This document shows positions 1-64,000 of a stretch of DNA of 64,000 nt, piece after piece. Source of the stretch: Bilabrum cf. latius (Eukaryota); NCBI GenBank assembly GCA_965178125.1, contig OZ237751.1, forward strand, positions 992,001 to 1,056,000, in the 5' to 3' direction. The notes beneath the pieces were generated by a model. It was not told the DNA's origin, made no database searches, and saw only the letters and a program-made list of their open reading frames with translations. Position 1 is the stretch's first letter. Each line of letters opens with the position of its first letter. The position numbers were made by a program, and so were the translations under genes.

Positions 1-1707
1 GTCGAAGAGGATACCGAGGTCTGTCGTCAGCAGCTGCACCTCGGTCTGGTTGCCGTTGGTGCTGCGGACGGTGTCAATCACTGCTTCGTTGGACCCGCAG
101 TACATGGCGATGGAAGGATGGTGAGCCAGCCTTCGCATCTGCACGCGCGTCTCTTCTTCCACCAGCCTGACGAAGTCGTCGTCCCTCGGGTACAGGGATG
201 AAGCGAAGGAGAAATCCACCCATAGCAAGATGCCCGACTCGTCAGCTGCCTCGAGCAGGTCGTCCCGTCCCATGTCGCCGCCCCCCCACACCCTTGCAAA
301 GTTGAAATTGCCCAGCTTGCCGGTGTACATGAGGCGGCGCTGCCTGCCCGGTGACACCCTACCGTCATACGCATCCTGGGGAACAATAGAGGCCCCCTTG
401 GCGAAGATGGGCACCCCGTTGATTCGGAAGTAGAATGTGAGGCCGGTCGCATTGGAGCCTGCAGGCGGAGGCTCCTGGACGAGCTCAACGTAACGGAACC
501 CCGTCCTCTTTGTGACCGAGTCAGCATCTGCCGCCACCGATTCCTATCGTGCCTGTCTATTCGGCAAAGCCGACCCTTTGCGCAGGCCCCCGGCCCCGCT
601 CTGATCGTTCCTGCCTGGAGTGAATGTGATCATGACGTCATACAGCGGGCTAGACCCCAGGTCTCTCGTCCACCACCAGTCCACGAGCGAGGCAGGCACG
701 GTTACATTCACCGTCACTGGCACAAGAAGGGGAGAAGCTATGTCATCGTCTGCGTCATCGCCGGGACCCGCGCCTTGCCCGCACCCGGGTGCAGCGGGGA
801 GCACGACGTGCGTCTGGTTGTATGCGTCCGTGCCCTTGATGATGGCCGTCAGAATGCCCTCCACCTGGGAGCAGTCGTTGGCTCTCGCCAGCTTTGCCTT
901 GCAGCGCACCACGAACGCGTCGCCCGGGATGGGAGACGCGTCGGTGGGGGCAGCAGGAGGGACCGAGGACGCTGCCGCATGGGCGGGCGAGCCGGGCTCT
1001 GCGGGATCGTCGGCCGGCCTGACGAACACAGCCGGCTGCCAGATGCGAGCAGAGCCCGCAGGCACGTGTACGAGACGCATGCCTCTCCAGATGCCGGTGG
1101 CCCCAGCGCTAATGCCCCAGTCCCAGCCGCCGTTGGCTGGCCAGGTTCGAACCTGGTTGAGGTTCGGGAAATTGTCGGAGAACTGAGCACCGGGGACGGT
1201 GTACGGGTACTAAGCAGCCCGGTTGATTGCGTATTTGGGGGTTGAATGGATCTGCACCTTGACTTTGGCGCTCTGGCTACCCCTGAGAGCGCTCGTGACA
1301 TCTACAGTATTTGATACGAACGCGTTCTCGGAATGCAAGACAGCCTTTCCGTTCACGAACACCGTGCTGATGGCATCGATACCATCCACTTCTAAATACA
1401 CTCTTTCGTTCGCACTGACCACGACGTCTATCGTTTTGGTGTAGGTCCACTCGTCGTATGCGATCCACGCCGATGTGACATCGTTGTTACTAACCATGGG
1501 CTCTGGGATTGTGCCGCTGCGCAGTAAATCTAACTGCACCTAGCCAGGCGTACTACCGTTGATGGATATGGATCCATTGGAGTTGACTACAGCCCAGCCA
1601 TCACCGTCGAGGGAATCCACTACCAATTGTGCAAGTGTGACGCCCGGCATCGTTGCGGCACCGAACAATACCACAGAGATCCCCCACAAAGATCCGGTTG
1701 CTCTCAT
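1..1707 (-). CDS. Secreted GH2 beta-mannosidase-like glycoside hydrolase; 3' end runs off the window; in-frame TAG at 1540, 1210, 544
   Basis: Signal peptide MRATGSLWGISVVLFGAA, then PG[Q]VQLDLL, YLEVDGIDAISTVFVNG, GWDWG..GIW, FYFRINGVPIFAKGA, RVWGGG and HHPSIAMYCGSNE. All lie in one frame when TAG is read through. Confidence 0.9.
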
Positions 1708-2032
1708 ATTTAACGGTTGTATTCGCTCCGGTGCGCCCCTCACTGGCACTAGCGCGTCGCTAGCGCGAGCAAACGGCAATGAGCCACCAGGGAATCTCGT
1801 TGATGAACCTTCCCTCAGGCTCTCCCCCAGTCTAGCTGGAGCTGCGCAGCTACCGGCACCAATGCAGTTGGCTGGTGGATGTGGTGGCGCGTAGGATGTG
1901 GACGTGGCCGACGTGCCAGCCGTGGTCGCAGCTCTTGCTGCCGTAGGAGCTAGAGGCGCTCCGCCAGTCTACTCTGCTGATCCGAAAGCAAACGAACACG
2001 AAGGCATCGCTGTGAGTCGTGCATGCGGAATG

Positions 2033-2098
2033 GCAAAAGGGCGTGAGGAGAGCCTCATGCACCATGCAAAAGGGCGTGAGGAGAGCCTCATGCACCAT
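2033..2098. repeat. Perfect 33-bp tandem duplication (gcaaaagggcgtgaggagagcctcatgcaccat x2)
   Basis: Directly visible in the sequence. Confidence 0.9.
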
Positions 2099-2832: not shown

Positions 2833-5448
2833 TCACACAATCTCGCCAGGTGCAGCACTGCCGGCCCCTGGCTTGCTCACGGCCTGCATGTTATCCACAG
2901 ACTTCTAAGACCCAACCGTATCGAGCTTGTCAGCCTCACGCCGAGTGGCACATTTGCAGCAGCACACATACCCGACCGCCACGGCCAGCACCATAGCCAC
3001 TCCAACGGCGATGATGGCAATGGCACCGGCACTGAGTCCATCATCGCTGTCATCCTGCTCTCCACCGTCGAGAGGAGGGGCCTCTTCCACCTGCAAGTCC
3101 TGTGTCAGAACCTCCACCTCCATCTCGATCGCATCGATTGATACCTGCAGGTCCTGCAACTCGGAGGGGACGGCAGCTCGCAAGTCTGCGATCAGGCTCG
3201 TTCGACCTCCACCTGCAGTTCCGTTCAGGTAGGCCAGCACAGCCTGCCTGGCCTGCTGCTCGTCGCGATCCATAGCAATGCGGACGGTGAAATCGACCTC
3301 CGAGCCGCTGACTGCGCTGCTAGTGGCCTGTAGCTGCCGTCTAGTGCCAGTGGCCGAGTCCAAACGGTTGATGGTCACCTCATCGGCCGATGCTGCCTCC
3401 TGCACGCCTGTCTGAAAGGGCTGCAGCAGGTGCTCCTGGAAGTTGGGAGGAGTCACGCGGGTGATGCGGGCGTTGGAAAATAGCAGGCGCCTCCCCCTCC
3501 GCTTCACAGGAGCCGTACACCTGCGCTCTGCATCGGCACACAGCAGGCCAACCATGCAGTTCGACGATGTCAAGCAGGTCCTGCCAAGGGAACACAACGG
3601 GCACTAGTCGTCGGATGGGTCCCCGCAGTCGATGTCGCTCTCCTCTCCGTTCATGACGGAGTCCATGCAGGAGATACCTGTCGCTGGCTCGCCCTCGGTG
3701 CCGGGGCTCGACGCAGGGGGGTTTCTGCTGGGAGTCGGCGAGTTGCTGGGGCTGCTGCTGACGCTCGGTGTGGGCGAGTTGCTGGGGCTGCTGCTGACGC
3801 TCGGTGTGGGCGAGTTGCTGGGGCTGCTGCTGACGCTCGGTGTGGGCGAGTTGCTGGGGCTGCTGCTGACGCTCGGTGTGGGCGAGTTGCTGGGGCTGCT
3901 GCTGACGCTCGGTGTGGGCGAGTTGCTGGGGCTGCTGCTGACGCTCGGTGTGGGCGAGTTGCTGGGGCTGCTGCTTGGTGATGTAGACGGCGTTGGAGAT
4001 GGCTCGATCTGGCTCAATGTCCACATCGCGCCTCGTCCGCTTCCGCCGTCCTGGTCACCGGTTGCGCCTACATACAAGGTGCGCGCTCCAGGCCCCGACT
4101 CGCACGTTGATGCAACCGCACTCCCGAAGTAGTTACGGTCGGTAAGGCTCCCATCAAAGCCACCCTCTGCATCGGCGACCTTGTGGTGCTCCTTGTTGGT
4201 GCCGTCCGAGTTGAGCAGAAGGATCCACACAGCGCCGCGAGAGGTACCACGGCCAGCATCTCCAGATGCCCCAACGGCAAGGTCCATGACACCATCGCCA
4301 TCAAGATCACCCATGCAGGACAACGAAATTCCGAAGGCGTCACCGTCGGCTAGAACTCCGGTAAAGCCCGCACCTCCAGGCAGAATCTTAACGAACTCAT
4401 CCACGGTTGCATCGCTGTTAAGAAACAGGATCCAAACGGCGCCGCGGTTATTCCCACCCGTCGAATCTGAGCTGGATCCGACTGCAATGCTGCGTAATCC
4501 GGATGTATTGTTGCTCAAGCGCCCCAAGTAAGCAACTGCCGTCCCAAATCGAACGTTGTTGCTCAATGTGCCAGTAAAGCCACCTTGCGTATCAGATATC
4601 TTCTGGTAGCTCTCGACTGTGCCGTTGGAATGCAAAGATAAGTACCATGCCGCTCCCCGCTCAAATCCGCCATCATTGTCGTAAGGTGCCCCCACAAACA
4701 AATCAACGGCCCCCCGCTAGTCCAGTGACTCAGCCACCGTCATGCTCAGGCCAAAATCATTGCCGTCAGCCAACGTCCCGGTGAAGCCCTCCTCGGTGTC
4801 GGAGATCCTTGATTGCCCCCTCACGGTGCCATTGGAATGAAGAAACAGGATCCACACGGCGCCCCGGCCAGATCCACCACCGCGGTCGCCGGGTGCCCCA
4901 ACGGCCAAGTCCTGCACTCCGTCTCCGTCAAGATCACCTAGACACGCCAACGCAGCACCAAACAAGTAGTCATTATCTAGAACTCCGCGAAAGTCCCCAT
5001 CTGTGCTCGAGATCTTTTGGTGCCCCTTGACGGTTCCGTTTGCACGCTGGAACAGGATCCATACTGCGCCTAAGTTTTCCGAGGCTCGCCCTTCATCATC
5101 ATCCGGCTCTGTTGAGCCGTCATCGTCGAGCATGGCACCAACTGCCAGGTCGGACACGCCATCGCCGTCCAGGTCGCCAAGAATCGCGATCGAGCATCCG
5201 AAGCCATCACCATTTTCGAGGATGCCTACAAAACCGCCTTGCGTCGACGAAATCTTCTACGATGTTTCGGGAAAGTCAATGCCGTCGCTGCTTAGGCGCC
5301 GACTTGCCTCGCGCCCTTCTTCGGCATCCCCTGCTGCACCCTCCAAGTGCACCGCTTGGACATTATGTTGCACCATGTCCACGTGGCTATGGGCCATGCC
5401 TGTCTCAGCGGCAGCGAGTATAGCGATTCCCACCACATGCCTGTGCAT
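2833..5448 (-). CDS. Type I membrane FG-GAP repeat (integrin-alpha-like beta-propeller) protein with Ser/Pro/Thr stalk, Cys-rich module and C-terminal TM helix; TAG at 5257, 4717, 3604, 2905; TGA stop
   Basis: Signal-like N-terminus, repeated FG..A.LGDLDGDG..DLAVGA...GAVWIL units, CMDSVMNGEESDIDCG module, TM AGAIAIIAVGVAMVLAVAVGYVCCC. Continuous frame through the TAGs to TGA at 2835-2833. Confidence 0.88.
3737..3975 (-). repeat. Coding 36-bp tandem repeat (about 6.5 copies) encoding SSSPSNSPTPSV, a mucin-like stalk
   Basis: Near-perfect unit gttgctggggctgctgctgacgctcggtgtgggcga. Confidence 0.92.
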
Positions 5449-12167: not shown

Positions 12168-15100
12168 ATGAGCGTGCCCATTTCAGCATCTCAGGGCAAT
12201 ACCCAGGTGAAGCAACCCGCTGGAAACCCAGCACAGACAGGTTTGCCATTCCATCGAGCCATCTTCAAGGAAGCCTTCGAGTAGGACGGCCTGAATGTGT
12301 TAGCAAAAGGTATTGGTCTTGAATTCGTGGTCATGAAGCTGCTTCGAGTGTATTCTGGGGGTGCACTGCCAGTCCTGGTGCTCGGCATGAACGATTCGGC
12401 AGCTGAAGTGCGCCAGGCACTTCGATCGGACGGCCTCCCCGCCGCCGCTCTCCCTAGAGTAGCCAGCAATGAAACTCCAGCGGCAGAGCGCGTGAAGATG
12501 TACGGCCGAGGCGGGTGCATCCTCGTCACGTCACGGATCGCGGTGGTCGATCTCCTGATGCGCCGCATCCTGCCGCATCGCATCGCTGGATTCATCGTCA
12601 TGGACGCCCACAGGGTGCACGCATCGTCCTTGGATGCGTTTGCGCTGCACATCTACCGGCGCAACTACACGCGCAGCGGCTTTGTGAAGGCATTCACGGA
12701 CGACGCCGAGTCGGTGGTGGCGGGGTACGGCCGGCTGGAGCAGACGATGCGAGCCCTGCAGGTGCGGCGCCTGCGCCTGTGGCCGCGCTTCCACGCACTG
12801 GTGCGAAGGGATTTCGACGCGTGTTCCCCGGAGGTGGTGGAGCTGCTGCAGCCGCTGGGCCCCTAGGTGTCCACTGTGCAGTCCTCCGCGCTGGCCGCCA
12901 TGGGGGCCTGCCTGGAGGAGCTGAGGAGGGACGCGAGGGTCGAGGTGGACGATGCCACGCTGGAGAGAGGGATCCTGGAGAGCTTCGACAGGCAGCTGAG
13001 GAGGCAGCTAGACCCTGTGTGGAACAGGGTCAGGGATACGACCAAGCAGGTGCTGGAGGACATCAGGCAGCTCAGGAAGCTGCTCTTCTTCGCCCTCAGA
13101 TACGACCCCGCGACCCTGCTGACGTACCTCGACAGCATGCGCGCCGCCAGTGCCACCACACAGAAGGCACAGAGCCTGTGGCTGCACACGGACGCGGCAG
13201 ACAGCATGTACAAGGCTGCCAAGGAGCGGCTATACACGGTGGAGCGGGTGCAGGGGGGCGAGAGGGGGGCAAGGAGGGCCAGGGAACAAGGGGCCGTGGT
13301 GGTGACCAGCGGGGGCCCCTCCGCGGGCCAGATTGGCCACCCACCGCTGCAGCACTGGGCGCTCAGGGTGCGGCTGGAGGGGCCTCCCAAGTGGGTGCTG
13401 CTGCTCGAGGTGCTGCAGGAGGCAGTGCAGGACCACGCACAGGCGTTCGGCGGGGGAGGGGTGGAGGCGGGGAGCAGTGAAGGTAGCCCATCTCGCACTG
13501 CCCGTTAGGCTCCGTCTGCACCTGCCCTACCGGCCGGGTGGGGCATCCCTGGGATATGGCGAGAGCCCCTATCGGGCAGTGCTATCGTGGTGTTCGTGCG
13601 GGACGAGCAGACGGCGGCCCAGGTGGAGGAGGTGCTCGTGAGGGGGCCCCGAGCCGTGCTTGAGGACCAGCTGCTGGCCTTTTTGCTCCGGAATGCAGAG
13701 GCCACAAGGGACTTGAGGGCTCGGTTCAAGCAGTCGCAGGAGAGGAGGCACGCGGTTGACAAGGCAGGGGGCACTGCAGGGGGGCAGCCGCAGGGGAGTG
13801 GTACTGCGGCTGCAGGGCCCAAGCAGTCATCCGCTTCGTCTTCATCTGCGGGTGCCTCGTCCGCAGGCTTGTCCAGTGCATCGATTCAGCCCCCATCCAG
13901 CACTGGGGGCGCAGCTGCTGCGGCGGCATCTGCCAAGGCGGGGGCGGGCGCTGCACCGTCAGCAGCACCAGACCTCGATGACAGCTCCGTGTTCGTCCCC
14001 GCAGAGCAGAGGCTCCTGTGGAAACTGACTGCCCGCATGCTGAGAGACAGACGGGCGGCATTCGCCAGGGAACAAGAAGGATCCAGGGAACAAGCGGGTG
14101 GTGCCGGTGGATCGAGAGCAAGGGCAAGGGGCCTGGAGGGCGGTGCCAACAGATCGTCGAGGCAGGTATCGCGTGCATCTGGGGGCCGTGCATCTGAGGC
14201 TGCTTCGGGAGCGTCCAGTCTCGCGGGGTCTCCTTCTCGGCTGGAGGCAGCGGGCGAGGCGCAGCTTGGACAGCGGCTGCATCGTGCAGTGGAGGGGCTG
14301 GTGCAGGACTCGCTGGGCGAGGAGGCTGCCAGGAGGAGGGTGGCGCGGCGGAGGGCCCGCAGGAGGGGGGCAGGAGGAGGGGCCACTAGGCAGAGGGCAA
14401 GGAAGGGCGCCACCATGGCAGGCTCTAGCGATAGTGAGGATGACGAAGATGAGGATGAGGATGGAGGTGAATTGGGGAGCAGCACGGCCACATCAGATCA
14501 ACCCCCCGAGATGCCGCAGGAGGCTACGGGCAAGGAGAAGCAGGAAGGGGCCAAGATGGACCGCAATGAGGCTGGCTCACGCACCCCCAGTGCCAAGCGT
14601 AGAAGAGTGCAGCAGCAGCCAGAAGAAGAAGAGGCTGGTACGGGCCAAGAGGCAAGGGCTAAGGCCGCGACACCGGCGACGGACTCGCGGCCTATGGGGC
14701 CTTCCAGCCAGGGCCAGTCCCAGTCCCACGTGTCTCTGTCCAGCGGAGGTTCTCTATCCTCCTCCTCTTCATCGTCATCTTCGTCATCCTTCGACAGCGA
14801 GGTGGAGCTGGAGACAGGGGCCAGCGCATCAGGTGCCGGTGATGAAGCTGCAGGGCAGGCCGCGGACGACTCGATCCGTGGGCGGGCGCAGGCACTGTGG
14901 CGGGCCATGAAGCGGACCTGCCTGCCCCGCATGCACGTGGTGGTGTAGCCGCTGTCTTCATGCCAGGACAGGCACCAGCTGCTGCAGGACCTGCGGCCCG
15001 TGTTCATTGTGGCGTACGACCCCGAGCCCAGGCTCACCAGGGAGATAGAGGTATACAAGGCGCAGCACGCCAGGGAACAGCCGGTGCGGGCGTACTTCCT

Positions 15101-25006: not shown

Positions 25007-25897
25007 TTATTTTCCTTCTTCCCCTGCGCCGTCCACACTGTCAGTCAGCATGGAGAGCAACGTGGTCGCATCCAGCCTGACCAGCCGTCGGTGCAGAGCA
25101 TCCACGCTCCACACCCCCGAGGAAGCGGACACCGCACCGTCGCTGGTTCCGCTGCATTCGCCTTCTCCTGGTTTTGCTGCCGTGCCTATGTCCCGAGGAA
25201 GCTCCATCTCGCTCTCGGGACCTTGCGCCTCGCCTCCGCATCGCCCCTCCTCGTCCTCAACCCCCGGGCCGCTCACAGAGCCGCCACTGGAGGCTGCCGC
25301 GCTGCTGCTAGCCTCAGAGGCGTGTCGCGCTTTTCCAAACCGTTTGATGGCTTCTGATCGGCTCAAGAGCTTAAAGTCGTCAAAGTCAAACCCAGGAGAC
25401 ACCGTGCAGCCAACCAGACTGTATCCATGCTGGTAAGACTTGGCCCATTCGGCTGCATCGCCAGCCACGTCGGGAAGCAGTGCGGATAATGGACAACAAC
25501 CGAACCAGCGACCCGCTGGCACGACATGTGTACATGCTAGCCCCAACGAAGGCCTGCCTAATACGCTTATTTGGTACAATTGCGATTCTTGATCCCCGCC
25601 TGTTGGATGCTTCCAAAACTCGACAATTGCCAAGGGGTCGCCGTCGTAGAAATGCCACATCTCGTCCGACGCAATCACGTGGAGCCTAGAAGTTGACTTT
25701 TTTGTTAGCATGAAATGTATCGCGGTACTGGCGTATCTATCCCCCTGGTGCTTCGACGTAAGAGCAGACTATGGCAACGAGAGACTTGATTGATATACTC
25801 GCCGATAGTAGCCTCCTTCGGGGTGTGGCTCAAGCTTATACTGAGAAATAATGCTTTCAATTGATGTATGGATCGAATCATCTGCCGATCCTGCCAT
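25007..25897 (-). CDS. Cupin_5 (DUF985) domain protein; TAG at 25769; TAA stop
   Basis: LEPHPEGGYYRR, STAIHFML, SRLHVIASDEMWHFYDGDPL, VVPAGRWFG, SLVGCTVSPGFDFDDF. Confidence 0.9.
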
Positions 25898-43967: not shown

Positions 43968-46181
43968 ATGGCCCGAATTACCGAAGAACTCATACGGAAG
44001 AAGTCAGAACACAATGATGGACTGCTTGGTGACCTGGAAGAGATCAGCTTGCACCAGTGCGAACTGGAGAGAATCGAGGTCATCGGCACCCTGTGTCGCA
44101 AGCTTCGCATCCTCTATTTGTAGAACAACATCATTCCGAAGCTGGAAAACTTGCATCATTTGAAAGAATTAAGGTATTTGAATATAGCCCTGAACAATAT
44201 CACCAGAATTGAGGGCCTTCAGTGAGATATTTGCCACGGATTCAGCGGTTGCCGTTGCGTTCGAACGCTGGTACCACAGCATCCATCGCGATGCCCCGAC
44301 CAAATATTTTGTGCCACCCGCAGAAATTGCGAGTTCTTGGAAAAGCTAGACATGACACTGAATTTCGTTGGAGTCGACGCGCTCGCTGACGGTGTAGAAC
44401 ACCTGTCGCAGCTTGGCCGCCTCGAAGACGTAACATTTCTCGGTAATCCATTCACAGACTGGGAACGACACCGCGACTACTTAATAGCTAGACTACCGCA
44501 GCTGCTTTCGATCGACGGAAAGGATGTGACGCGCTCGGAGAGGCTCTCGGCGCAGCAGCGGCTGAGCGACCTGGAGGCGGAGCTGGCCGAGCTGGCCGCT
44601 GCGGAGGCCGCTCGAAAGGAGGAGGAGGCCAGGAAGAAGAAGGAAGAGGCAGACGCCAAAGAGGCTGCTGCTTCTGCGGATAGCCCTTCGAGCGGCGCCG
44701 GGTGCGATGCCGGGGTAGGGGGTGCGGCAGGAGGCGCATCTGGCGAGGCTGAGCCGAGAGGCAAGTCGGCTGCTGTGGATGAGTACGAGGATGGGGACGT
44801 GGATGGAGAGGTCCCGAGTGGCGGCAAATAGAAGGCGGCAACATAGGAGGAGGAGGAGGCGTCTCCCTGGTGCCCCGAGGAGCGCGTGCAGATGTACCGC
44901 GAGATGGCCGAGCAGCGCCGGGAGGAGGAGGAGAGGGAGAGGGCGAGGCAGCCCAAGGAGAGGGACTACGGCGAGGAGCACAGGGCGCGGATGGATGCGC
45001 TGAAGGAGGAGGAAGAGGAAATGGCCCGGATGGGTGGCAAGGTGCGATGGAGGAACGAGGGCAAGCTGGGCTTCAAACTGGAGGAGGAGGATGGCAGGGG
45101 CAACATCGTCCTGCGGCTGGACCTGCCGCGGTTCCTGGATTCGAGCCTGGTAGACGTGGAGGCGCACCCGCACCACGTCACGGTGGTGGCCAAAGGGAAG
45201 CTCTTCCGCATGGCGTGGCCCGAGGAGGTCTCCGCCAGCGAGGGGCAGGCGGAGAGGCTCCCTTCCGGCGCCCTGGTGCTGACTGTGCCCAAGGCCAAGC
45301 GGCCGTCCAAGTCCACGAGGAAGGCGTACCTGAGGGCGGCGAGGGAGGCGCGGGAGGAGACGGCGAGGCGGGAGGAGGAGGAGAAGTGGTCGAAGGACGA
45401 GCGAGCGGGCAGGAGGAGGAGGCTGCGGCACGGGTCTGGTGGCAGCGGCAGCGGCAGCAGCGATGAGGAGGTGGGGGTGGGGGTGGGAGTGGGGGGTGGC
45501 AAGCTGGCGCTGGAGATTATGCGGGCCGCCGCCGGGGAACAGGAGCAGACAGGAGCAGGCACAGAAGAAGTAGCGGAGCAAGCTGAAGGCGAGGAAAAGA
45601 GCGGAGACGAGGAGCGCATGTTGGGAGCAGGCAACTCTAGCCGCAAGCATGAGCTGGCTGGCACCGTCAGCGTGGCTGGGATCGTCACAGCGCGGGACCG
45701 GAGGCGGATGGACCGGCGGGCAGGGCGGCTGCCAGACGAGGACGATGTGACGAGTGACGAGGATGAGGATGGAGACCGCGTGACCCCTCTGCAGGCGGCC
45801 CAGGAGGTGCTCAAGGTGCTGGACTCGAGGCGGCTGGACGGGGCCGAGACGCTGGACCTGGCCTCCTTGCGGCCGGGTGAGCTGGAGGCAAAGCTGGGGC
45901 GGGCTGGGGCGGGGGGAGGGAGGGCGGGAGATGCCGCGTCAGTGCTGTCGGGACTGGGGAGTGCGGCTGGGAGTCGGCTGGGTGGCAAGAACCGTGGGCG
46001 GAAGAAGACTGGGAAGTCAGCCAAGTCGGGCGCTGGCGGCCGGCCGGACGCCGCCACGATCGGGACAGCGTCTGTGGCGGGGTCTAGCAGGCGAGCGGGC
46101 AAGGGCGGTAAGAAGGGCAAGAAACGGGTTGACGGGCTTGTGTCTGGCTTGATGGGCCAGGTGAGAGCGATGCATGGGTGA
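43968..46181 (+). CDS. DNAAF11: Dynein axonemal assembly factor 11 (LRRC6/TilB); intron 44222-44323; TAG at 44121, 44829, 44844
   Basis: [30 protein letters not shown][Q][31 protein letters not shown], LRRcap [14 protein letters not shown] domain [13 protein letters not shown]. Confidence 0.95.
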
Positions 46182-46279: not shown

Positions 46280-47776
46280 ATGGACAAGGAGTCCCAATGC
46301 AGGTTCTTCAAAGGCATGCTATTTCGTTCATTGCCGCGCCAATATTTGGTGCTCGCCGCACAGTAGCCGCCGATCCTGTACTTTTGCTTGAGCTCGCTGC
46401 ATTTGCTAGGTGTTCCACCGTCGGATAAGGAAGCTGCTATCCTGCGTAAAAAGATACGGGCTGGATGGGTTGTTGATCAGTTCGGTAGGGGTGGCTTCGC
46501 AGGCCAGTCCAGCGATACCGGCCGTGCTTCAGTCGACGCTGGGGATCCGACGTCGACGCCGCACCTCGCATGCACGTATGCGTCCCTTGCCGCGCTCGCG
46601 ATGATAGGAGAGTCCCGCGACGATTGGATATCTTGGCGAGACCCTGTGGTCCAACTGATCGCCAGCATGCAAGAGAGCACGGGCGGGTTCTCCGTTTCTA
46701 GCGTGGAGCGCGGAGAAGATGCCCGCTTCATGTACAGCGCGTGCATGGTTTCTGAGCTAATTGGCGATTGGAGTGGGATCAACGTGTCCGCGGCTCTCCG
46801 CTGGCTAGGCCATGCCCAGTCTATGGAGGGAGGCTACTCCCTGTTGGGCGGCGGTCCCGTCGGCGGGGAGGCGCACGGGGGCAGCACCTATTGCGCCGTG
46901 GCCGCCAGCCGACTGCTGCAGCTGCAGCTGGCACGACAAGGTGCACGATGTTCCCCTGCCATGGCGGTGGGCGCACATCCAGCGGACAGCAGGGGCGGGT
47001 GCCCCGCGGTGGTGCGGCGCGTGGGGCGGGCAGTGGGCAGGTGCCTCGCGCGCAGGTTGGCGCACAGACGGAAGGAGCAGCCCCAGGAGGGACCCGGAGC
47101 CGGTTCACCAGCAGTTCCGTAGCCGGATTGCATCGCATCAGATGCTCGCACAGCACCCACTGCCACTGGCAGGAGCACCTGCTCGGATCGCACCCGTCGG
47201 CTGTGCCTGTGGCTGGGCCAGCGGCAGGGAGACGGGGGCGGGTTCACGGGCCGTCCCCACAAGCAGGAAGACACATGCTACGGGTTCTGGGTGGGCGCCT
47301 CCATGCGACTGCTGGGGCTGGGGGACTGGGTGCGGGGAGAAGATCTCCGGGGGTTTGTGGAGGGCACTCTGTTCAAGCAGGGGGCGGGGGCGGGGGAGGC
47401 GCATGCCTTCGCCAAGTGCAAGGGGCACCCCCCGGATCCGCTGCACGCGCACTACTCGCTGGTGGGGTTGGTGGAGCTGAGCCGGGGCCAGCGGGGGCCG
47501 GGGGAGAGGGTCTTCGATCCGCTGTCGGGGCTCCCGCAGCGGGCAGCGGACCGACTAGGGATTGGGAGAATGGAAGGTGGAGGTGGAAACGGCATTGGCA
47601 GCACGAGCTCTGGTGCCCCGGGGAAAGAGGGGCGCAGCGATGCCCGAGGCAATGGCGATGGCGATGGCGATGGCGATGGCGATGGCGATGGCGGGCCTGC
47701 CACTGCCAGCCAGGACGGCGGGGGCCAGGAGGCGTCCAAGCCAGTGCTTGAAGAGGTCGAGGGCGGACCGACGTGA
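46280..47776 (+). CDS. PGGT1B: Geranylgeranyltransferase type I beta subunit-like prenyltransferase; TAG at 46364 and 47120
   Basis: HLACTYASLAAL, EDARFMYSAC, QSMEGG, EAHGGSTYCAVA, GFTGRPHKQEDTCYGFWVGA, PDPLHAHYSL. Confidence 0.85.
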
Positions 47777-47943: not shown

Positions 47944-49055
47944 ATGGCAAAACCGAAGAGTAGCGGCAGCACATAGCTGCATGCTCCATCAATGTACAAT
48001 TTTGCCATGCAACTTATCTCTGGAGCGGGTGCAGGTGCTATTACGAAGACATGCATTGCTCCACTGGAGAGGATCAAGATTCTGTTGCAAATTCAGGTAA
48101 GAAACCTCACCGAATCCAAGTGATAGTTTGTGTTTGTCTGTTCCAGCAAGATGCGCACCTGTATCGTTCGAGTAGCCTCCTATGCGCGTTGCGATCGCAG
48201 GGGATGCGAATCGCAGAGGGAGTAATCGACAAGCCGAGATACACTGGAATGATGGATTGCGGCGCGTACGTTGTTCGAGAAGAAGGGCCGCTAGCATTGT
48301 GGAGAGGAAATGGCGCTAATGTAGCCAGGGTGATCCCGGTGTATGCTCTTAAATTTGGTTTCAATGACTCTTTCAAGGAGATGGTTGCTGGACCGGAGGC
48401 TCTGCAATCCGGGAGTCGTCTCAGCTTTCTGCAGCTGATCTAGGCGGGCACATTGGCGGGTTTGTTTCAATAGTTAATTACATACCCGTTGGAGGTGGTC
48501 CGCACTCGGCTCACGATGGGCCCAAAGCTGGGCATCGAGTACAAGGGCATGCTGGACTGCGGCGTGCAGACTGTGCGGTCCGAGGGCATCGGGGGCCTGT
48601 ACAAGGGGCTGGCCCCTACGCTGATGAGCGGCTCGCCGTATGTGGGCATTTAGATGACGGCCTACGAGATGCTCTCCCGGATGTCCCCCCAGCTGGACGT
48701 GTTCCAGGACGAGGCAGTGCAGGCCAGGGTGAGGGCGGCGGAGGCAGAGGGCAAGGGGGCGCAGGGACCTCCCCCCTCGCTGCCGTACAAGCTGTGTGCG
48801 GGCGCGGTGGCGGGATTGCTCGCTCAGTCCATCACGTATCCCGGCGACACGATCCGGAGGAGGATGCAGCTGAATGGCGCTGGCGGCAAGGCCAGGCAGT
48901 ACGCGACCAGCTGGGACTGCACCAAGCAGATTTTCCGTCGCGAGGGTATCAGGGGGTTCTTCCAAGGGGTTGGGACGAACGTGGTGCGGTGCATCCCGGG
49001 TGCTGCCATCCAGTTCGCTGCGTACGAGACGCTCAAGCAGCTCCTCAAGGTGTGA
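47944..49055 (+). CDS. Mitochondrial carrier (SLC25) protein; intron 48097-48200; TAG at 47974, 48441, 48471, 48651
   Basis: Three carrier repeats with PLERIKILLQ, PLEVVRTRL and PGDTIRRRMQ, plus LWRGNGANVARVIP; TGA stop. Confidence 0.93.
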
Positions 49056-51381: not shown

Positions 51382-52801
51382 TCACGAGGCCGGCTTGCTG
51401 GCGTCCGCTGCAGCCTCCGCGTCGCCTTCCGCGGCCCCGTATGTAATTGGCCTACCCAGCCCAGCCGCCACCCCTGCTGCCGGCTCGGAAGCCCCCGCCC
51501 CCACATGCACCAGCAGCTCCCCGGCCCCCTTCTCCAGCATCAGCTTGGCCAGCTCCACGCCCACTGTGGCGGCTTCGTGCCAGTACCTCGGAGCAGCCCC
51601 GAAATGCAGCTCGTGCGTGGCTAGGGGAACAGTGGCACCAGAGGCACCGGCCCCGCCGCCCTTCCCCGGAGCTGGTTGGGGACACTCCCCCGCAGCGGGG
51701 GTCTCTCCTGGGGTAGGCAGCGCCACCAGCCCCGTGACAGCCCCCTCCACCACCTTCTGACCATCTCTGGATAGCACAGTGCCATGAAGCGCCAGCCGGT
51801 GCGTGGGCTTAGGCCCCGCCCCCCCTGCGCTCTCGCCCGAGACTGCCTCTTCCCCAGATGACCCCAGCGCCGTCAGCTCGCTTAGCACGCCGATGGGGAC
51901 CTGGCAGCCCCCCTGCAGCCCGCGCAAGAACGCCCGCTCCGCCTGGCAGCGCGCCGCAGATTCAGGGTGCTCGCAGGCCTGCCTGCACACGGCCGCGCTG
52001 GCCGCATCCGAATCCCTGACCTCGATCCCGAGGGCACCCTGGCTCACCCCATAGGGGAACTCGGTGGGGTCCAGCACCTGCGAGATGCGCTTGCCCCAGC
52101 CAAGCCGCTCCAAGCCCGCCTTCGCAAGCACGAGGGCGGCGTAGACGGGGGCAGGAGCAGCGCCAGGCGCTGGCTCGTGCTCCCCGTCTAGCTTCTTGAT
52201 CCGCGTGTTCAGGTTGCCGCGCACAGGGTCAACATCCAAGTCCGGGTATCGCCTGCGCAGCAGAGCTTCGCGGCGGAGAGAGCTCGTTCCAATCAAACTG
52301 CCCTTTGGCAGATCTGAGAGCGACTTGTACCCGGCTTCGATGCTCGCCTTTGACAAGACTACAGCATCCTCCGGGGCTGCCCTCTCAGAGATTGCAGCAA
52401 GAGTAAGCCCATCCGGCAGATGTGTGGGCACGTCTTTCAAGGAGTGTACTGCCACATTGGCAGCCTCCGACTGCAGCCAAACCTGCGGCGGGGGTTCGAT
52501 GACGGCCTAAGTGTTCGAGTGAGAGGCAACAAAAACGGGTGGGCGTGCGTGTCTCTTGGCCCGTCCTTACTTCTAGCTCCTTTGTGAATATTCCAGGCGA
52601 TACAGTAGCAAGCTGCGACAAGGGCTTGTCCAGAATCTTGTCTCCTTCCGCTAACTAGGTCATAATTTCGATTGTTGGAGGCGGTACCAAAGACAGCATT
52701 TGATCGCGAACCCAATGCGTTTGAACCATTGCAAGCTCGCTGTTCCTCGATCCAATAACAATTTTTCCACCTTTGGCATCCCCAGCGGCAGCAGCAGCCA
52801 T
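51382..52801 (-). CDS. HMBS: Porphobilinogen deaminase (hydroxymethylbilane synthase); intron 52483-52570; TAG at 52655
   Basis: IVIGSRNSELAMVQT, GDKILDKPL, IFTKELE, AVHSLKDVPT, IGTSSLRR, VRGNLNTRIKKLD, AERAFLRGLQGGCQVPIG. Confidence 0.95.
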
Positions 52802-52988: not shown

Positions 52989-55037
52989 TCACGCGCTCAC
53001 CTCAACGCACAGGCCCTCGTCCCCCGCGCCGGCCCACACCTCGATCCTGGACGCCACGCCCTCCCCGCTGGGAGCGTCGTGCGCCCACCAGGAGGCCTCC
53101 GCACTGCGGGGCACGGGCAGCCTCTCCGCGACCTTGTACGCCGCAGGCAGCGGCTCCCCCCCGGGCGTGCTGGCCCCCGGCGCGTCGTACCGCGTGAATC
53201 GAGACAGGGGCAGCGCAGCAGCGAGCTCGTGCCCTTGCCCCGCCTCGGCGCTGGCAGCCCACTCGTCATACGCGGGGAACGGGGCGCGCGCGATGGGTCC
53301 GCGTGCTTCTGCTTCGACGGCTACCCGGCCGCTGCCGCACGTCCCACTCGTCACACTGACGCTCACCCGGTCTGCCCTCGCGGCCATCCCGTCGAGCAGC
53401 AGCCGCACCTCTCGCCCCACGGGCCCCACCTCGAGCTGCAGGCCCAGGCCGGGTCCGCCGTCCTTGGCTGGGCCTGCCGAGTACCACGCCACTGCGTCCG
53501 GCCCCATGTGTTCCCTGAGATCTACGGACACTTTCTCGGGCGCTTGTTCCCTGGAGAGCACGTCCCAGTCGGGGTCCCACCCATGGGGGGAGTGCACGGC
53601 CAGGGTGAGCGCCCCCTTGGCGGGGGAGGCCCCCCCCCTGCCGGTGTATCGGGTGGACACGTGCAGGGGCACGATGTCTCCCTGCCGGCCGAAGACCGGG
53701 ATGACGGTGAGGGGGGCTTCCACCCGCACGGTTGCGTTGGAGGGGTAGGTCTTGTTCCGGTCGAACCAGTCGAACCAGCCCTTGCCCGTCGGTGTGGCCG
53801 GCAGGTGCACCGTGGCGCGGGTCACGTTAGCCTCCGACACCGGGTGCACGAAGATGGAGGGGCCCAAGGAGTAGTCGTACGAGGAGAAGTTGTTATACTG
53901 GATCAGGTCCTGCTCGTCCTGGGGGCGGGGCTCGGAGGGAAGCACCAGCGAGCTGTTGGTCTCGTAGGCGCGCGCGCCGTGGGACAGCAAGTACGGCTGC
54001 AGCTCCATATGCGCCGCCACGAGTGCCCTGTAGGCGTCCACGATGACCGTGCTGCCGGGGCCATCGAAAGCCCAGGGCCTGTGCTCCTTGTCTCCCCCGT
54101 TCTCCATCAGTGGCAGAAACGCTCCCATCTGCGCCCAGCGGAGAAACAGCTCGGCGGTGCGGCCCTGTGTCCCGTGCCCCGACCTGTACCCGCCAATGTC
54201 GCTGCCGAATCCCGTGTAGTTGTTCCACCCCGAGTGCAGGAGGTTCCGCAGCGCGTCCTGCATGCCCTCGAAGGTCGGGTCCTGGTCGCCCACCCAGCCA
54301 GAGAACATCACGTCCCGCGGGGAGAAGTCCAAGTACACCTGGATCTCGGCCCCGATCACGTTGTAGCTGTCCACCGGGCGGGACATGACCAGGCAGTGCG
54401 GGCCGTTCTGTTGCCTGGTGTATTGAAAGAAGTGGCGGTAGTAGTCGGTCGCGTACTCGCGATATGAGACGGGCCCCGCGTGCCCCTGAGGGTCCAAGTA
54501 CTCGATGATGAACGGATCCGTCCCATCCACCTTCCAGCCGTCGATATCAAGCTTGAGCACATTGTCAAGAGCGTCCTGCCACCAATCGACCGCCTTGTCG
54601 TACGTGTAGTCCAGAAGCAACCCGTCCCCGTGCCACCAGTGCAGGGTTGACGTCTCGTTCAGGGCATTTCGAATGTTGTAGTCGTTTGAGGCCATCTCCT
54701 AGTAGTTGCTTGAGTCCGTATCCACCATGGACGTGGCCCAGAGGATAACCATCGTCCCGTTCGAGTGCTGTCCTGCCACTAGCGCGCCCAAGTCTGGGAA
54801 TTTGGACGTGTCCGGTACAAAGTCATTGATTCCTTTCGACCACGTGCTATCAATGTCGATGGCACCCACGGGAATCGTGTGGTCCCTGAAGCTTTGAGCG
54901 AACTCTTCAACGGCCGGCTACGTTGAGCGGTCTGCTGAGAGCCAGACCCAATGCTCGTGCGCCCATGGGGCGTACGGAGTCGTGCCACATACAAGACTAG
55001 CACTAAGGGCAAGGATTGTCGCGGCCTCCCCCCTCAT
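52989..55037 (-). CDS. Secreted GH31 glycoside hydrolase; TAG at 54918 and 54699
   Basis: Signal peptide, IPVGAIDIDSTW, SKFPD, IDGWKVDGTD (nucleophile), WVGDQ, GSDIGGY, ELFLRWAQMGAF, PW.F, IPVF.R.G. Confidence 0.9.
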
Positions 55038-57993: not shown

Positions 57994-60900
57994 ATGTCGC
58001 GATCAGACGCAGAGGCTTTATTTGCCTCCTATGGCATTGACCCCAAAGCTCCGTACCCTTGCACGGTTTTGGATGGTGAGCGTCCTATCGGCCCTGGCCA
58101 ACCGAACTCGATCATATACCCGCTCGTAGCGATAGCGTTGCTCAATGCAGAACGCATAGTTTGCGATCCCACGCCCAAACGTCAGTTATGTGTGCGCCAG
58201 TGGGCGTCTGCAGCGCACTAACGATCTGTGACCTCAGCCAGAATCCGCCGCCCAACCCACCGGTTGTGGGTTTGGCTGCAAGACGGCAGTTTTCGCACAG
58301 AAGCAGCACTGCATGCCGGTCATGCCCAACGAATGCACGTTGCATGCCAGATTCATGTGATTCGCTGCATGCCTTTCCACCGCAGAGCTGTTTCACGACG
58401 TGGTGGCCATCGATGTGAACGCTCTCGTGGAGCAGCACCCCGACAACCTGCTGTCCAAGGCGCTCACCAACCACCTGGCCATCCCACGGTGGAAGCGGTT
58501 CACCTCAGAGATCAAGGGGATATTCAGGTCCATTCGAAGGCACGTCAAGGGCGGATCCAACGCGCAGTACATCCCGGTGCTGGCCGAGGCGGATCCCAGC
58601 AAGTTCGCGGTGTCCGTGTGCACGGTGGACGGGCAAATGTACTCGGTGGGCGACTACAACTGGGGATTCTCTATACAGAGCTGCGTGAAGCCGCTGCTGT
58701 ACGCGATGGCCCTTCAGGAAAACGGGCTCAAGCGGGTGCACCGGCACGTGGGGCACGAGGCCAGCGGGCTCGCCTTCAACGAGGTCAGCCTGAACAAGGA
58801 CGAGCTACCCTACAACCCCATGGTCAACTCGGGAGCCATCGCCACAGCCTCCACTGTCAGGCCGCAGGAGAGCTCCGCGGCTAGGTTCCGCGCCTTCAAG
58901 AAGTTCGTGGAGGGGCTGGCGGGGCCAATTAAGGTGGGCTTCTCGCAGCCCACGTACCTGTGCGAGAGCGAGACTGCCTGGAGGAACAACGCGCTGGTGT
59001 ACTTCATGATGAAGGCGGGCGTGTTCTCGAAGGACGTGGACCCGCTGCAGAGCCTTGACTTCTACCTGCAGGCCTGCTCCATCGAGGTCACGGCCAGGGC
59101 GGCGGCATGCGTGGCCGCCACTCTGGCCACGGGCGGGATCATGCCGCTGACGGGGGAGCGCCAGATCGAGTCGTGGGTCGCGCACACGGTGATCCAGCAG
59201 ATCTTCGTGGGGGGCATGTACGACGCCTCCGGGGAGTGGAGCGTGCAGGTGGGCCTGCCAGCCAAGAGCGGGGTGGCCGGTCTCATCTACGTGATCATAC
59301 CCAACCGGGCGGGCATCGCGATCGTGTCCCCGCCTTTAGACGACCACGGCAACTCGTTTCGGGGAGTGGAGTTCTGCAGGCGGCTGCTGCGGTCCTACCC
59401 GCTGGGCATCTTCGACCAGATCATCTCTGCCTCCATCGACGAGCGGGGGCACTCGAACGTGCTGGCGGATGAGCCGAGGGGAGGATCCGCGCATGGGAGC
59501 GCCAGCAGCTCGAGTGGCCCGGGCACCGTAGTGGCAGAGTCCGTGCTGGATCCGGAGCAGTACCATGGGCAGGCACAGGCCGCCAGCACGGCTGATCCTG
59601 GGGCGGACCACGACCGGGGAACGTGGGGCGCGGGGGGGTCTGTGGCCACGGATCAGGCCGAGAGCAAGCAGCAGGGGGGCATCAACGAGGACGGTCGCGG
59701 GGGGCAGAGGAAGGGGCAGAGGCCGCGCCGGGGATCCCTGACGCGGGAAGCGGTGGGCGGGCAGAGCTTCATCCGAAAAAAGCACGGGCGGAGCGACGGT
59801 GAGTTCGACCAGGCCTCTCCCCGTCCTGACGCGACCGACGCGTCTAGCAAGGGCGGGGCTGGAGCTACTGGCCCTTCGTTCGACTTCGGGGCCCAGATGG
59901 CGGAGAGCGAGGCAAGGGGGCTGCTGCACGAGGTGCGGCACGTGAGTCTGCGGCTGGTGCGGCTGCTCCGGAGGGTGCGGCTGTACTCGAGGTTCTACCA
60001 GTGGGCGCAAAGGGAGGGGCTCCGGCGATCGACTAGCCACGAGGAGCTGGGCAGCGAAGGAGGGGTGGACATGCGGTACGCCGCGGACGAGATGGAGTCT
60101 GGGTTTTCTCCAGAGGCGAAGGCGGTGCGGCCCCAGGGCTCTCCCCCCGCTGGGGCGGTGAGCGCGGAGGACGACATCGCCGGCTTGACCCGGGATGCAC
60201 CCGCCGGTACCCGCGGTGGTTTCTCTATCTGCGACTTGCAGATGCCCAGGCAGGCCCTGGAGGAAATGCTGCTGAAGCGGGGCATCGAGCTGGACCCGGA
60301 GCGGCAGCCGTACGCGTGCGGGCTCCTGGACCGTGCCAGGGCAGCGGGAGCGGCGCGCATGCGTGCAGAGGCGGCGAGGGCGGGTCTGGGTGACGCGGGC
60401 ACTGGACCCGTGTGCGAGGAGACGGGTGGGCCTTGGAGCGCGGGACCGGGCAAGCAGGTGTCGTTCTCGGCCGAGTCCCTGTCGGCGGGAGTCGCGCCGC
60501 CCGACTCGAGCGGGGTGGTGGAATCGCCCACCAAGCAGGCCCCCGCGGGACTCATGCGAGTGGGCGACCTGAGCAGTCCGCTGGGCCTGTCCCGGGGCCA
60601 GTCCGTGCTGCCCACGGACGACTTGGATGAGGCCGAGGAAGACAGCTGGGTGGTGGACGTGCGGGACCTCTTCCTCGCCGGTGTGCAGAGGAACCCGATC
60701 CTGTTCGCGGCGGTGGACGGGCTGGCCATCCCCGATTTCTAGCTGCTGCAGCGCGACCTAGATGAGATCATGGGCACGGTGCTGCGGAGCGCCGAGGCCT
60801 AGCAGGGGGAGGTGTACTCGAAGGACGACATCGAGGAGCTCTCTCAGGCGGACCCGGATGCGTGGGCCGTGTCGGTGTGCACTGTGGACGGGCAGACATA

Positions 60901-63505
60901 CCACATGGGCCAGGCCGACGTGGATGTGCCGCTCATGCAGGCCATCAAACCGTTCCTGTACGCTCTCGCGCTCAAGGACCGGGGTCAGCACGAGGTCAAC
61001 CGTTGGATCGGCACGGAGCCCACGGCACTAGACCCCGAAGGATTCACGTTCATGAAGCTAGGGGGCGGCGGGCACGGGGGCGGGGGAGGGGCCTCCAGCT
61101 CTGGGGGGTCCGACGAAGAGGAAATCGCGGGCGAGAGCAGCGGGCCGGTCCCGTCCGCATCCCCTGTGGGAGCCGGGCCCGTGGTGCCCGTGTCTTCATC
61201 GGGCCTGCTCGAGACTAGCGGCAAGCCCGGCATGCTCGACGGGGAGGACGAGGACATGATGCCGTGCCAGGACCCGTCCCAGGGGCCCCAGGTGCGGCCG
61301 TACAACCCGTTCACGGACACAGGCGCGCTGGCGGTGAGCGCGCTGATCGCCATATCGCGGCCCTTCAAGGACAGCGGGTCTAGGTTCAGCCACATCATGG
61401 GCTTCATGCGGCAGCTGGCGGGCTAGCGGCACGTGGGGTTCAGCAACAGCGTGTTCCTTGCCCTCAAGGAGAAGCGGCTCATGGTGCGCGCCCTGTCGCA
61501 CTACATGCAGGGCATGGACCTGTACCCTCCCGGGTGCGAGCCCAACGACATCGCCTCTCTCCTGTGCCAGATGTTCTCCGTGGAGGTAAACATGGAGACG
61601 CTCGCCGTGATGGCCGCCACCCTCGCGCGAGTCGGGGTGTGCCCCGTGACCAGAGAAAAGGTGCTGCCCACTCACGTCGTGCGGCGCATGTTCTCCATCA
61701 TGTACACGAGCGGGCTAAACGAGCACAGCGGCAACTGGAGCTTCAACGTGGGCATACCTGCCAGCAGCGGCGCCAGCGGCGTGATGCTGGTGATCATCCC
61801 GAACCGCATGGGCATCGCCATCCACTCCCCCCGGCTGGCCAGGGGCGGCATCCCGTCCATCGCCACCCCTTTCTGCCAGGCCCTCAACCAGAGGTACCGC
61901 GGGAACATCTTCGACTCGCTCGTGCACCAGGACCAGGCCCCCTCCAAGGCGGCAGAGGAGGGCACGCACCGGGTGGAGGCCCCCATGAGCACCAAGCAGG
62001 GGCTGCTGTTCTTCGAGCTGTGCGTGGCGGCGCACATGAACGACGACAAGAGGGTGAGGGAGCTCCTGGAGGACGGTGCAGATGTCACGCTGTCGGACTA
62101 CGACAGCCGCACGGCCCTTCACATCGCGGCCAGCGACGGGCACCTGAGGGTGCTCAACACTCTGATCGAGGCGGGCGGGGACGTGCTGGCCAAGGACCGC
62201 TGGGGGAGGACCCCGCTGGAGGACGCGGGGCTCACGGGTCACGCGCACTGCCTGTCTGCCATGCAGGAAGCACTCAGGAGGCAGGGGTACAGGGAGGTGC
62301 CCGGGGCTGGAGGCGGGCACGGGCACGGGCACGGGCACGGGCAGGCGGGGCCTGGGCCGGCGTCCACTGCCAGCGAGCATGGGAGCACGGACGGGCGGAG
62401 TGGTGGGCGGGGGCCGCCCACTCTGTTGTCTGAGGCATTCGGGGGCAGTCGCAACGGCTCCGAGTCGGACATCGCTCGGCTGGGGCTCGCCCTTGGGGGC
62501 GACGGCGGGGACACGACCCCCAAGCCCTCGGCTGTGGGGGGGCCGGGTGCGAACGATGCGGCTGGCTGGGGCTCGGGGGTCTCGGCGGATAGCGGACATC
62601 CGTCCAGCAGCCACCTTCACGGGCTTGGGCTGGACGTGCCCAGGCGTCCTTCGGGCGCGATGCTGGCAAGCCTCATGGGAGTGTCTGCCGGGCACAGGCG
62701 TGGGCCATCGGGGGCGGGGGCACACAGGGGGCCAATGGCCCGGTCAGCGCTGCACTCGAGCTCCAGCCCGCTGCTGGCGGCGCAAGGGGTCAACCAGGGT
62801 GCATCGCACGCAGGTGCGTCCCACATCATGGGTCGCCAGGGCAGCACCGGTTCGGACTTCCAGCTGCCGCCCACCGCGCGTGACGCTGACGCTGGCACCC
62901 ACGACACTGACGTGTCCTCCACGGGCCGGTCTCATCAGGACGAGGGCGTGGGGGAGCGGGGCAGCCTGGTGCTGTCTCCGTCCTCCAGAGGCCGGTCCAG
63001 TGCGGAGGGGGACGGGCCATTGAGTGCAGCTGCCATGGGCACTGTGGGGGCCATGGAAGGGGCCGGGGCCAGGTCACTGACCGGGGACACCGTGGCGTTC
63101 GTGTCTCCTGGGGGCGACGTGGTGCACGTGCCTGAGGTGATGCTGGGTGTGGGGGCGCACCAGCATCGGCACGGGCACCTGCAGCACACCCAGCATCAGC
63201 ATCAGGTGCAAGGGCAAGGGCAAGGGACCTCTCGGCGCGCTGGGGGCGGGGCATCGGCGGCTCCCCACAGAGGGGGGGGGGAAGGGCGCACCCCGCCCAT
63301 GGCACCGGCAGGGCGGAAACCATCCCCGCTGCATCCTCAGGACAGCCGCAACGGGGGACAAGGTGGGGCTAGCAACGGAAATGGCAGTGCAGGGGCCGGC
63401 CAGGGAGCGGGACGCTCTGCTCCCAGACCTGTAAGGGTGGGAGAGGCGCTGGCCAGGGCCCTGCAGCCGTACAGAGACCGAGCAGAGGCAGGTGAAGAGT
63501 CGTGA
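57994..63505 (+). CDS. GLS: Glutaminase with two tandem glutaminase domains plus ankyrin repeats; true start probably further upstream; TAG at 60740, 60800, 61424
   Basis: Domain 1: AQYIPVLA, SVCTVDGQ, SIQSCVKP, PYNPMVNSGAI, GMYDASGEW, PAKSGVAG, SPPLD..GNS.RG. Domain 2 is a degenerate copy. Ankyrin DYDSRTALHIAASDGH, DRWGRTPL. Confidence 0.9.
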
Positions 63506-63649
63506 AATGTATTTTAATGCGCAAAACGGTTGTTCTGGCTCTTGTGGGCCTTTGTTTCGGATCCATGATGGGGTCAGAACACTTGCGGAACCTCTATGCG
63601 GATGCGCGGCGCCAATCCATCTCCACGTCTTTCGGATCATATTATCGCA

Positions 63650-64000
63650 ATGAGAGCTGTCGGACGGACTGCAAGGACACTGCAGGTTGCTGTAGCCCGC
63701 TCTGCTGGTCGATTGTCGGTGGCTCCGCTGGGCGTGTAGAGGGCTGGGTACCACGAGAACATCGTGGACCACTACGAAAACCCCAGGAATGTCGGTGAGG
63801 CACGTGCCGCCGTTTCTTCACGCATAGAACCTATCTGGGACACACCCTGCATTGCAAGTATTACTCATAGCTATGTTTCGCAGGTTCACTTGATAAGAAG
63901 GCGAAGACAGTTGGAACTGGCCTCGTAGGGGCACCATCGTGCGGCGATGTCTTGAAGCTGCAAGTGAGGCCGCCAGTTGGCGCTTCATGCCACAATTTTG
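63650..64000 (+). CDS. ISCU: Mitochondrial Fe-S cluster scaffold IscU, 5' part; intron 63795-63883, next intron from 63964; TAG at 63737
   Basis: Transit peptide MRAVGRTARTLQ...LGV[Q]RAG, then YHENIVDHYENPRNVG|SLDK..VGTGLVGAPSCGDVLKLQ. Confidence 0.93.

Follow-up and report, generated by a model that had tools for sequence, protein, structure and literature searches.

Nuclear codes in which UAA and UAG together specify glutamine (NCBI translation table 6) are used by many ciliates, Hexamita, ulvophycean algae, and Streblomastix. Amoeboaphelidium is listed with the same code in a recent survey (PMC11687900). In Iotanema spirale (Fornicata), UAG alone encodes glutamine, UAA and UGA are the stops, and eRF1 carries a T32G exchange in its GTS motif (Panek et al. 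2017, PMC5304391). The same assignment, glutamine at UAG only, is found in Protocruzia tuzeti and two phyllopharyngean ciliate lineages, for which a tRNA-Sup(CUA) unable to read UAA is proposed (McGowan et al. 2024, PMC11687900). In other organisms, an uncoupled UAG means leucine (the rhizarian exLh and a ciliate) or serine (Scotinosphaera) (PMC5304391, PMC11687900). Here, we analyzed a stretch of 64,000 nucleotides (contig OZ237751.1, positions 992,001 to 1,056,000; the whole stretch is called the window) in which conserved regions of many expressed genes contain the codon UAG in frame, where it acts like a glutamine codon. A first-pass annotation of the window had considered glutamine at UAG alone to be rare, with I. 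spirale as the reported case; rare it is, but Protocruzia tuzeti and the two phyllopharyngean lineages lengthen the list (PMC11687900).

We propose that the nuclear code of the host reads UAG as Gln and retains UAA and UGA as stops, which is the content of NCBI translation table 15, and we assign this reading a probability of roughly 0.9. It is carried by homology detected with all stops masked, by spliced contigs that keep TAG, by glutamine-like alignment columns at TAG, and by an exchange of TAG and CAG with a related metagenome contig (L001). UAG as a sense codon is a trait common to at least one related species.

With 63% G+C, the window is indeed GC rich, as the first-pass annotation had said of the organism. 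The longest frame has 959 codons under the standard code; with only TAA and TGA as stops, frames of 1,714, 1,658, 1,508, and 1,373 codons appear. More than 60 TAGs had been claimed to interrupt about 20 genes, and we count 66 in 20 long TAA/TGA-free frames on both strands, 18 of which contain TAG, but not all 66 are coding. Frame length alone proves nothing, because reading through TGA lengthens frames as much as reading through TAG: frames of at least 500 codons comprise 24,834 codons in the former case versus 22,649 in the latter. Therefore, a masked-stop homology test was used instead. All three stops were masked alike, all six frames were aligned to 523 homologues of four genes, and stops inside at least 10 homologue high-scoring segment pairs (HSPs) were counted. 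In the ~2,800 codons covered, the alignments enclosed 11 TAGs, no TAA, and a single TGA (49053), which is the mitochondrial carrier's own terminator, so that the earlier statement that conserved domains hold no in-frame TAA or TGA stands. Five further TAGs lie inside alignments to PDB sequences (one each in the kinase, the GGTase-I beta, and the Cupin_5 protein and two in XPF). Over 19 gene frames (15,478 codons), 53 TAGs are in frame and neither TAA nor TGA occurs, whereas 34 TAA and 236 TGA would be expected from the off-frame rates in these stretches.

TAG makes up 7.6% of the glutamine codons in the window genes and 24% in the glutaminase of L001 and is, therefore, far too frequent for leaky readthrough. 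Furthermore, the base after TAG at 18 sites is C in 6, G in 6, A in 4, and T in 2, without a common sequence context; the flanking bases vary as first described, and these varied contexts argue against a readthrough signal.

The public runs X1, X5, X6, and X7 were compared to positions 44001-64000 of the window as contigs, not raw reads; X5, X6, and X7 come from two studies other than that of X1. Eight joints with GT..AG borders (CT..AC for minus-strand genes) are present in X5, X6, and X7 and none in the DNA-like run X1, and therefore, the former contain spliced cDNA. Contigs of these three runs, whose RNA status is inferred from the joints, cover 13 in-frame TAGs, and not one letter differs anywhere in 44001-64000. 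That UAG is retained in mRNA, a check proposed with the first-pass annotation, is thus what the spliced contigs give, and because T-A-G is kept there, editing, sequencing error, and introns are ruled out at those 13 sites. The carrier is a clear example. An intron of 104 nucleotides (48094..48197, plus strand, GT..AG) is removed at the joint 48093->48198 in X5, X6, and X7 but not in X1, and the spliced mRNA (47928-48093 plus 48198-49126) forms a single open reading frame (ORF) from ATG to TGA 49053 that contains four TAGs. The first of them (47974..47976), in exon 1 near the N terminus, follows the start MAKPKSSGST and is covered by X5, X6, and X7 without other letters. If TAG were a stop, this mRNA could yield only a fragment.

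Two joints with noncanonical borders, 44637->45911 (X1 only) and 50365->50463 (X6 only), were taken for artefacts of repeats and discounted. As an observation aside, the stretch is present with no differing letter in runs X1 to X7, which are filed under three organism labels.

About 22 TAGs are firmly coding: 16 by homologue or PDB alignment, 5 by RNA (47974, 44829, 44844, 55757, and 63737), and 1 (5257) by internal repeats. TAG 52507 is not coding, because it lies within an HMBS intron (52481..52568, minus strand) that is spliced out in the RNA contigs (joint 52480->52569, CT..AC, in X5, X6, and X7). TAGs 47940 and 47961 were rejected as well, being out of frame in carrier exon 1, where the true in-frame TAG is 47974, and for several TAGs close to the 5' end of a frame, translation may begin only downstream.

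A relative with the same pattern was found through the glutaminase gene of the window. Its closest homologue is the protein P0121 (79% identical), which led to L001, a metagenome contig of 5,222 bp with 55% G+C that is collinear with window positions 59294-63807 at a nucleotide identity of 75 to 81% (about 77%). The glutaminase of L001 has 14 in-frame TAGs, and no TAA or TGA is in frame in either gene over 1,264 aligned codon pairs. At all five L001 TAG sites with flanks of at least 7/10 identical residues (window positions 59894, 60599, 60986, 61889, and 61928), the window has CAG. One TAG is common to both (60740..60742 in the window, plus strand; position 1316 in L001; flanks 8/10 identical), and the other two glutaminase TAGs of the window, 60800 and 61424, face GCC and AGA, respectively. 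In the poorly aligned low-complexity parts, L001 TAGs face assorted codons, one of them GAG at 63134. With the trait and one orthologous TAG present in a relative that is about 77% identical in nucleotides, the reassignment may be fixed in a clade and not be a property of a single strain. P0121 (255 amino acids) corresponds exactly to the stretch between two in-frame TAGs of the L001 glutaminase (1706-2471). Standard-code gene calling splits genes at TAG, and therefore, the public proteins of this lineage are fragmented, as P0121 shows. We also noted a one-base frame shift in L001 at ~2365-2375, within the conserved IIPNRMGIAIH; P0121, which stems from a sister contig, is without the shift, which is probably an assembly indel.

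UAA and UGA remain the stops, as first proposed: with none in frame over 15,478 codons, they close 18 of 18 gene ends, 16 with TGA and 2 with TAA. The TAA ends are those of the Cupin_5 gene (25007..25009, minus strand) and NADK (37325-37327). Two C termini are fixed independently, that of the carrier by its homologues and that of the glutaminase by comparison to L001, and both are TGA. The carrier terminator (49053..49055, plus strand), where the homologue alignments end, is the sole non-TAG stop touched by HSPs. The glutaminase-ankyrin terminator (63503..63505, plus strand) aligns with TGA 3993, where the L001 orthologue ends.

Stops with a dual meaning are known from Condylostoma and karyorelict ciliates, and UAG could likewise be context dependent here, i.e., glutamine within genes and also a terminator at some gene ends. 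Such a terminal TAG would be hidden by our procedure, since gene ends were set by TAA or TGA and a TAG upstream would be read through; indeed, the FG-GAP frame has a TAG (2905) only 23 codons ahead of its TGA. However, TGA 49053 is where the carrier homologues stop, the glutaminase has its TGA end in common with the L001 orthologue, whose TAGs reach to ~135 codons upstream of it, and the TAGs have no sequence context in common. We therefore regard a dual UAG as unlikely.

Alternatively, UAA and UAG might both be glutamine, as in the common UAR code, with TAA too rare in GC-rich DNA to appear. At 63% G+C, CAA accounts for only 15.5% of CAR codons, and few TAA sense codons are to be expected. 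Nevertheless, if TAR followed the A/G ratio of CAR, 9.7 in-frame TAAs would be expected in the 15,478 codons, and none is seen (P = 6e-5). The same reasoning applied to the glutaminase of L001, with its 55% G+C, gives 5.9 expected and none seen (P = 0.003). UAA is, therefore, still a stop, since the expected in-frame TAAs are missing and the ISCU gene of L001 ends in TAA, as do the cupin and NADK genes of the window, and we consider the UAR code very improbable.

The identity of the residue is best judged from the homologue columns opposite TAG. Their summed log-odds are +13.5 for Gln, followed by Thr (−7.1), Ala (−8.6), Asn (−8.7), and Glu (−8.9). The carrier TAG at 48651..48653 (plus strand; RNA contigs of X5 and X6) falls in a nearly invariant Gln column (117/120), and the GH31 TAG at 54918..54920 (minus strand; X5, X6, and X7) in a Gln-dominated one (75 of 95 aligned). 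Glutamine also accounts for 31 of 75 residues at TAG 60740 of the second glutaminase domain (D 25, E 10; X5 contig 59687-61058), for 32 of 120 at the glutaminase TAG 61424..61426 (plus strand; N 35, R 17; X5 contig 61094-63558), for 33 of 120 at the GH31 TAG 54699..54701 (minus strand; A 35; X5, X6, and X7), and for 22 of 120 at the carrier TAG 48471..48473 (plus strand; T 51, I 26; X5 and X6). It is less frequent at the GH2 sites 1210 (15/150) and 1540 (13/147) and absent at 48441 (0/120); two further TAG columns consist mostly of gaps. On average, the Q fraction in homologues is 0.347 at TAG (9 sites), 0.244 at CAG (49), 0.309 at CAA (6), and 0.024 at all other codons (1,391). The three codons with the highest mean Q fraction are TAG, CAA, and CAG, and in 100,000 random draws of site sets without Gln codons, the value of TAG was not reached once.

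It is imaginable that UAG is a sense codon for another residue, i.e., Glu, Leu, Ser, Tyr, Lys, or pyrrolysine. Codes with UAG as Leu, Ser, or Glu exist in other lineages (PMC11687900), the kinase TAG stands opposite Glu in PKC, and one L001 TAG faces the GAG at 63134. The summed log-odds speak against it (Gln +13.5 versus −7.1 for Thr as the runner-up and −8.9 for Glu), as do the two columns with Q in 117/120 and 75/95 and the window CAG opposite L001 TAG at 5 of 5 conserved sites, and we give a residue other than glutamine very little credence. The weakest alternative is an unchanged code, with the TAGs explained by introns, lesions in pseudogenes, errors of sequencing, or editing to CAG. The intronic TAG 52507, the out-of-frame 47940 and 47961, and other TAGs near frame starts that may be noncoding could be adduced for it, but it is extremely improbable in view of the spliced contigs from runs of two other studies that keep TAG at 13 sites without a differing letter, the TAGs inside gap-free homologue alignments, and an independent metagenome relative with the same pattern.

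Several observations weigh against the proposed code. Some TAG columns are not Gln-like, namely, those of 48441 (L/A/W), 60800 (gaps; Ala in L001), 46364 (facing a conserved Arg of GGTase-I beta), 20803 (facing Glu of PKC), and the two XPF sites (facing Thr). CAG sites are as scattered as TAG sites, with a mean Q of only 0.24, and the kinase position of TAG 20803 is Gln in PKA. TAG 25769 in the Cupin_5 protein lies in a variable loop of the alignment and is, therefore, uninformative on the residue. Gene ends other than those of the carrier and the glutaminase are the first TAA or TGA by definition, so that a terminal UAG would be read through, and TGA read-through, too, yields long frames in GC-rich DNA. 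The RNA status of X5 to X7 rests on the spliced joints: their automatic label is only "RNA?" and for X5 "probably DNA," no run containing the stretch is on record as RNA, and contigs can mask minor variants.

How could UAG be captured without UAA? The decoder may be a tRNA-Gln with the anticodon CUA, which a single base change would derive from the CUG isoacceptor; such a change is the customary route. UAG and UAA would be uncoupled because a CUA anticodon cannot read UAA, an argument also made in PMC11687900. This tRNA would then prevail over an eRF1 that has become poor at recognizing UAG. UAG may already have been a little-used stop in this GC-rich lineage and thus cheap to capture, since UGA closes 16 of the 18 genes. 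The first-pass annotation had placed the genes for tRNA-Gln(CUA) and eRF1 outside the window, and ARAGORN, Rfam, and Pfam scans of the window indeed gave neither; ARAGORN detected no tRNA in L001 either, and Rfam had no match at all in the window.

The host is tentatively a stramenopile near the bicosoecids and a relative of the flagellate Cafeteria, judging from protein similarities. The nearest named homologues of the carrier are from Hondaea, Cafeteria, Bicosoecida sp., and a marine stramenopile (MAST), with 49 to 53% identity, and that of GH31 is a Cafeteria cluster (57%). In a single-gene tree of GH31 (85 sequences; homologues shorter than 450 amino acids left out), the window falls into a clade of six with Cafeteria (support of 0.66) that is nested within a clade of 28 (support of 1.0). 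A protein-cluster search with HMBS returned bacterial HMBS clusters only, without taxonomic signal. The placement is tentative because Rfam matched no rRNA in the 64-kb window.

The genes of the window are eukaryotic, have short GT..AG introns, and are densely packed on both strands. After masking of TAG as X, Pfam at a cutoff of E ≤ 0.001 confirms 14 of the 20 frames as genes: GH2 mannosidase-like, FG-GAP, ERCC4/XPF, protein kinase, Cupin_5, EF-hand, NAD kinase, DNAAF11, prenyltransferase beta, mitochondrial carrier, EamA, HMBS, GH31, and a double glutaminase with ankyrin repeats. ISCU is present as a partial 5' end at the right edge of the window; NifU_N matches only with E = 0.039 over 47 amino acids, but the sequence matches the ISCU of L001. 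Of the gene names given earlier, ARMC1, URI, and SPATA17 have no Pfam support (best match, an IQ motif with E = 0.16). The frame called URI (23348-24871, plus strand; 508 codons without TAA or TGA) has 10 TAGs, of which 8 fall within the first 220 codons, and a lower G+C at third codon positions (0.60). Its TAGs are without homology support, and a Pfam cutoff as loose as E ≤ 1 yields no match. It may be partly noncoding or a fast-evolving gene with heavy TAG use.

At the left end of the window, the GH2 mannosidase-like gene (minus strand) has TAGs at 1210..1212, 1540, and 544, all inside 124 to 150 homologue HSPs; the columns of the first two are variable, and the third is mostly gaps. TAG 5257..5259 of the FG-GAP protein (minus strand) lies in a repeat whose four sisters carry Q, S, Q, and H at the matching position. 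A microsatellite-like coding repeat with the unit SPSNSPTPSVSS occurs ~7 times in the same protein at about 3700-4000 (minus strand). Both XPF TAGs, 12282..12284 in the N-terminal domain (plus strand) and 12864..12866 (plus strand), are enclosed by a gap-free alignment to human XPF (345 amino acids, E 1e-61), opposite Thr. The TAG in the catalytic domain of the kinase (20803..20805, minus strand; FFAA-TAG-IALG) lies inside the Pkinase match and the PKC alignments. The EF-hand protein (26125-28785, minus strand) has long GM and GG runs, and Gly/Ala/Ser-rich inserts are seen within conserved domains of many genes, e.g., NADK and the second glutaminase domain.

Further to the right, the DNAAF11 TAGs 44829 and 44844 (44829..44846, plus strand) belong to a frame with LRR_9 and CS_DNAAF11_C, and both are covered in X5, X6, and X7 by contigs with the splice joint 44221->44324. 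TAG 46364..46366 of the prenyltransferase beta gene (plus strand) is inside the GGTase-I beta alignment, opposite the Arg mentioned above. The carrier TAG in a variable column, 48441..48443 (plus strand), is in 174 HSPs (L 31, A 28, and W 14 of 120) and covered by RNA contigs of X5, X6, and X7, and the TAG of a membrane protein at 55757 has RNA contig coverage as well.

The glutaminase-ankyrin gene (58361-63505, plus strand; 1,714 codons) encodes two complete glutaminase domains, ankyrin repeats, and a long low-complexity tail (Pfam E 6e-160, 3 stretches); L001 (1-3995) has the same layout over the part covered. Its TAG 60800..60802 (plus strand), in a gapped variable column, is covered by an X5 contig. 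In the N-terminal part of ISCU, TAG 63737..63739 (plus strand) is embedded in the spliced frame MRAVGR...GV-TAG-RAGYHENIVDHYENPRNVG, and the joint 63793->63883, whose contig spans this TAG, has a depth of 1636 in X5, where 81 or more letters flank it on either side. In addition, contigs of X1, X5, and X6 link 46105 to 63208 via the same 31 to 37 extra letters, and the depth of X1 is 244 at 62010-62676 compared to ~41 elsewhere; these places probably harbor a dispersed repeat.

I. spirale is one of the closest known systems. It has the same codon table and in-frame UAG in many genes, no gene ends with UAG, and Gln makes up 23% of its UAG columns versus 19.5% at canonical codons, compared to 0.35 versus 0.24 to 0.31 in the window (PMC5304391). 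However, I. spirale is an unrelated anaerobic metamonad, and its terminators are 104 UAA and 15 UGA of 119, whereas 16 of 18 gene ends in the window are TGA (PMC5304391). Protocruzia tuzeti and the phyllopharyngeans likewise read UAG as Gln and keep UAA as a stop, but they are ciliates with 27 to 54% G+C and UAA as almost the sole terminator (PMC11687900), in contrast to the stramenopile-like window with its 63% G+C and mostly TGA-terminated genes. The codes with UAR = Gln share the step from stop to Gln, presumably via a mutated tRNA-Gln, but reassign UAA too, which is absent in frame and ends genes in the window. Codes with UAG as Leu or Ser resemble the window in that UAG is sense and UAA and UGA are stops; they differ in the amino acid, for which Gln is strongly favored here.

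A search of the literature returned no report of nuclear stop reassignment in stramenopiles, although most subscription journals and supplements were outside its coverage and a report elsewhere is possible. The window may represent the first such case and a further, independent origin of Gln at UAG alone, fixed in a clade with a GC-rich genome that terminates mainly with UGA. We put this forward tentatively, at somewhat less than even odds, and independence rests on the placement near the bicosoecids together with the literature search. If true, it would support a scenario in which a tRNA-Gln mutant with its anticodon changed from CUG to CUA captured a little-used UAG stop, with no AT pressure needed. 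Few codes give UAG and UAA different meanings, and these bear on the release-factor and tRNA constraints that couple both codons. Since its database proteins are fragmented at TAG, surveys will under-detect the lineage as long as table 15 is not used for its annotation. A free-living, GC-rich, intron-bearing stramenopile with genome and transcriptome data and a relative that shares the trait would be a new system apart from ciliates and metamonads. In sum, the code itself is already known from I. spirale and the ciliates; new are the lineage, the GC-rich setting, and termination dominated by UGA.

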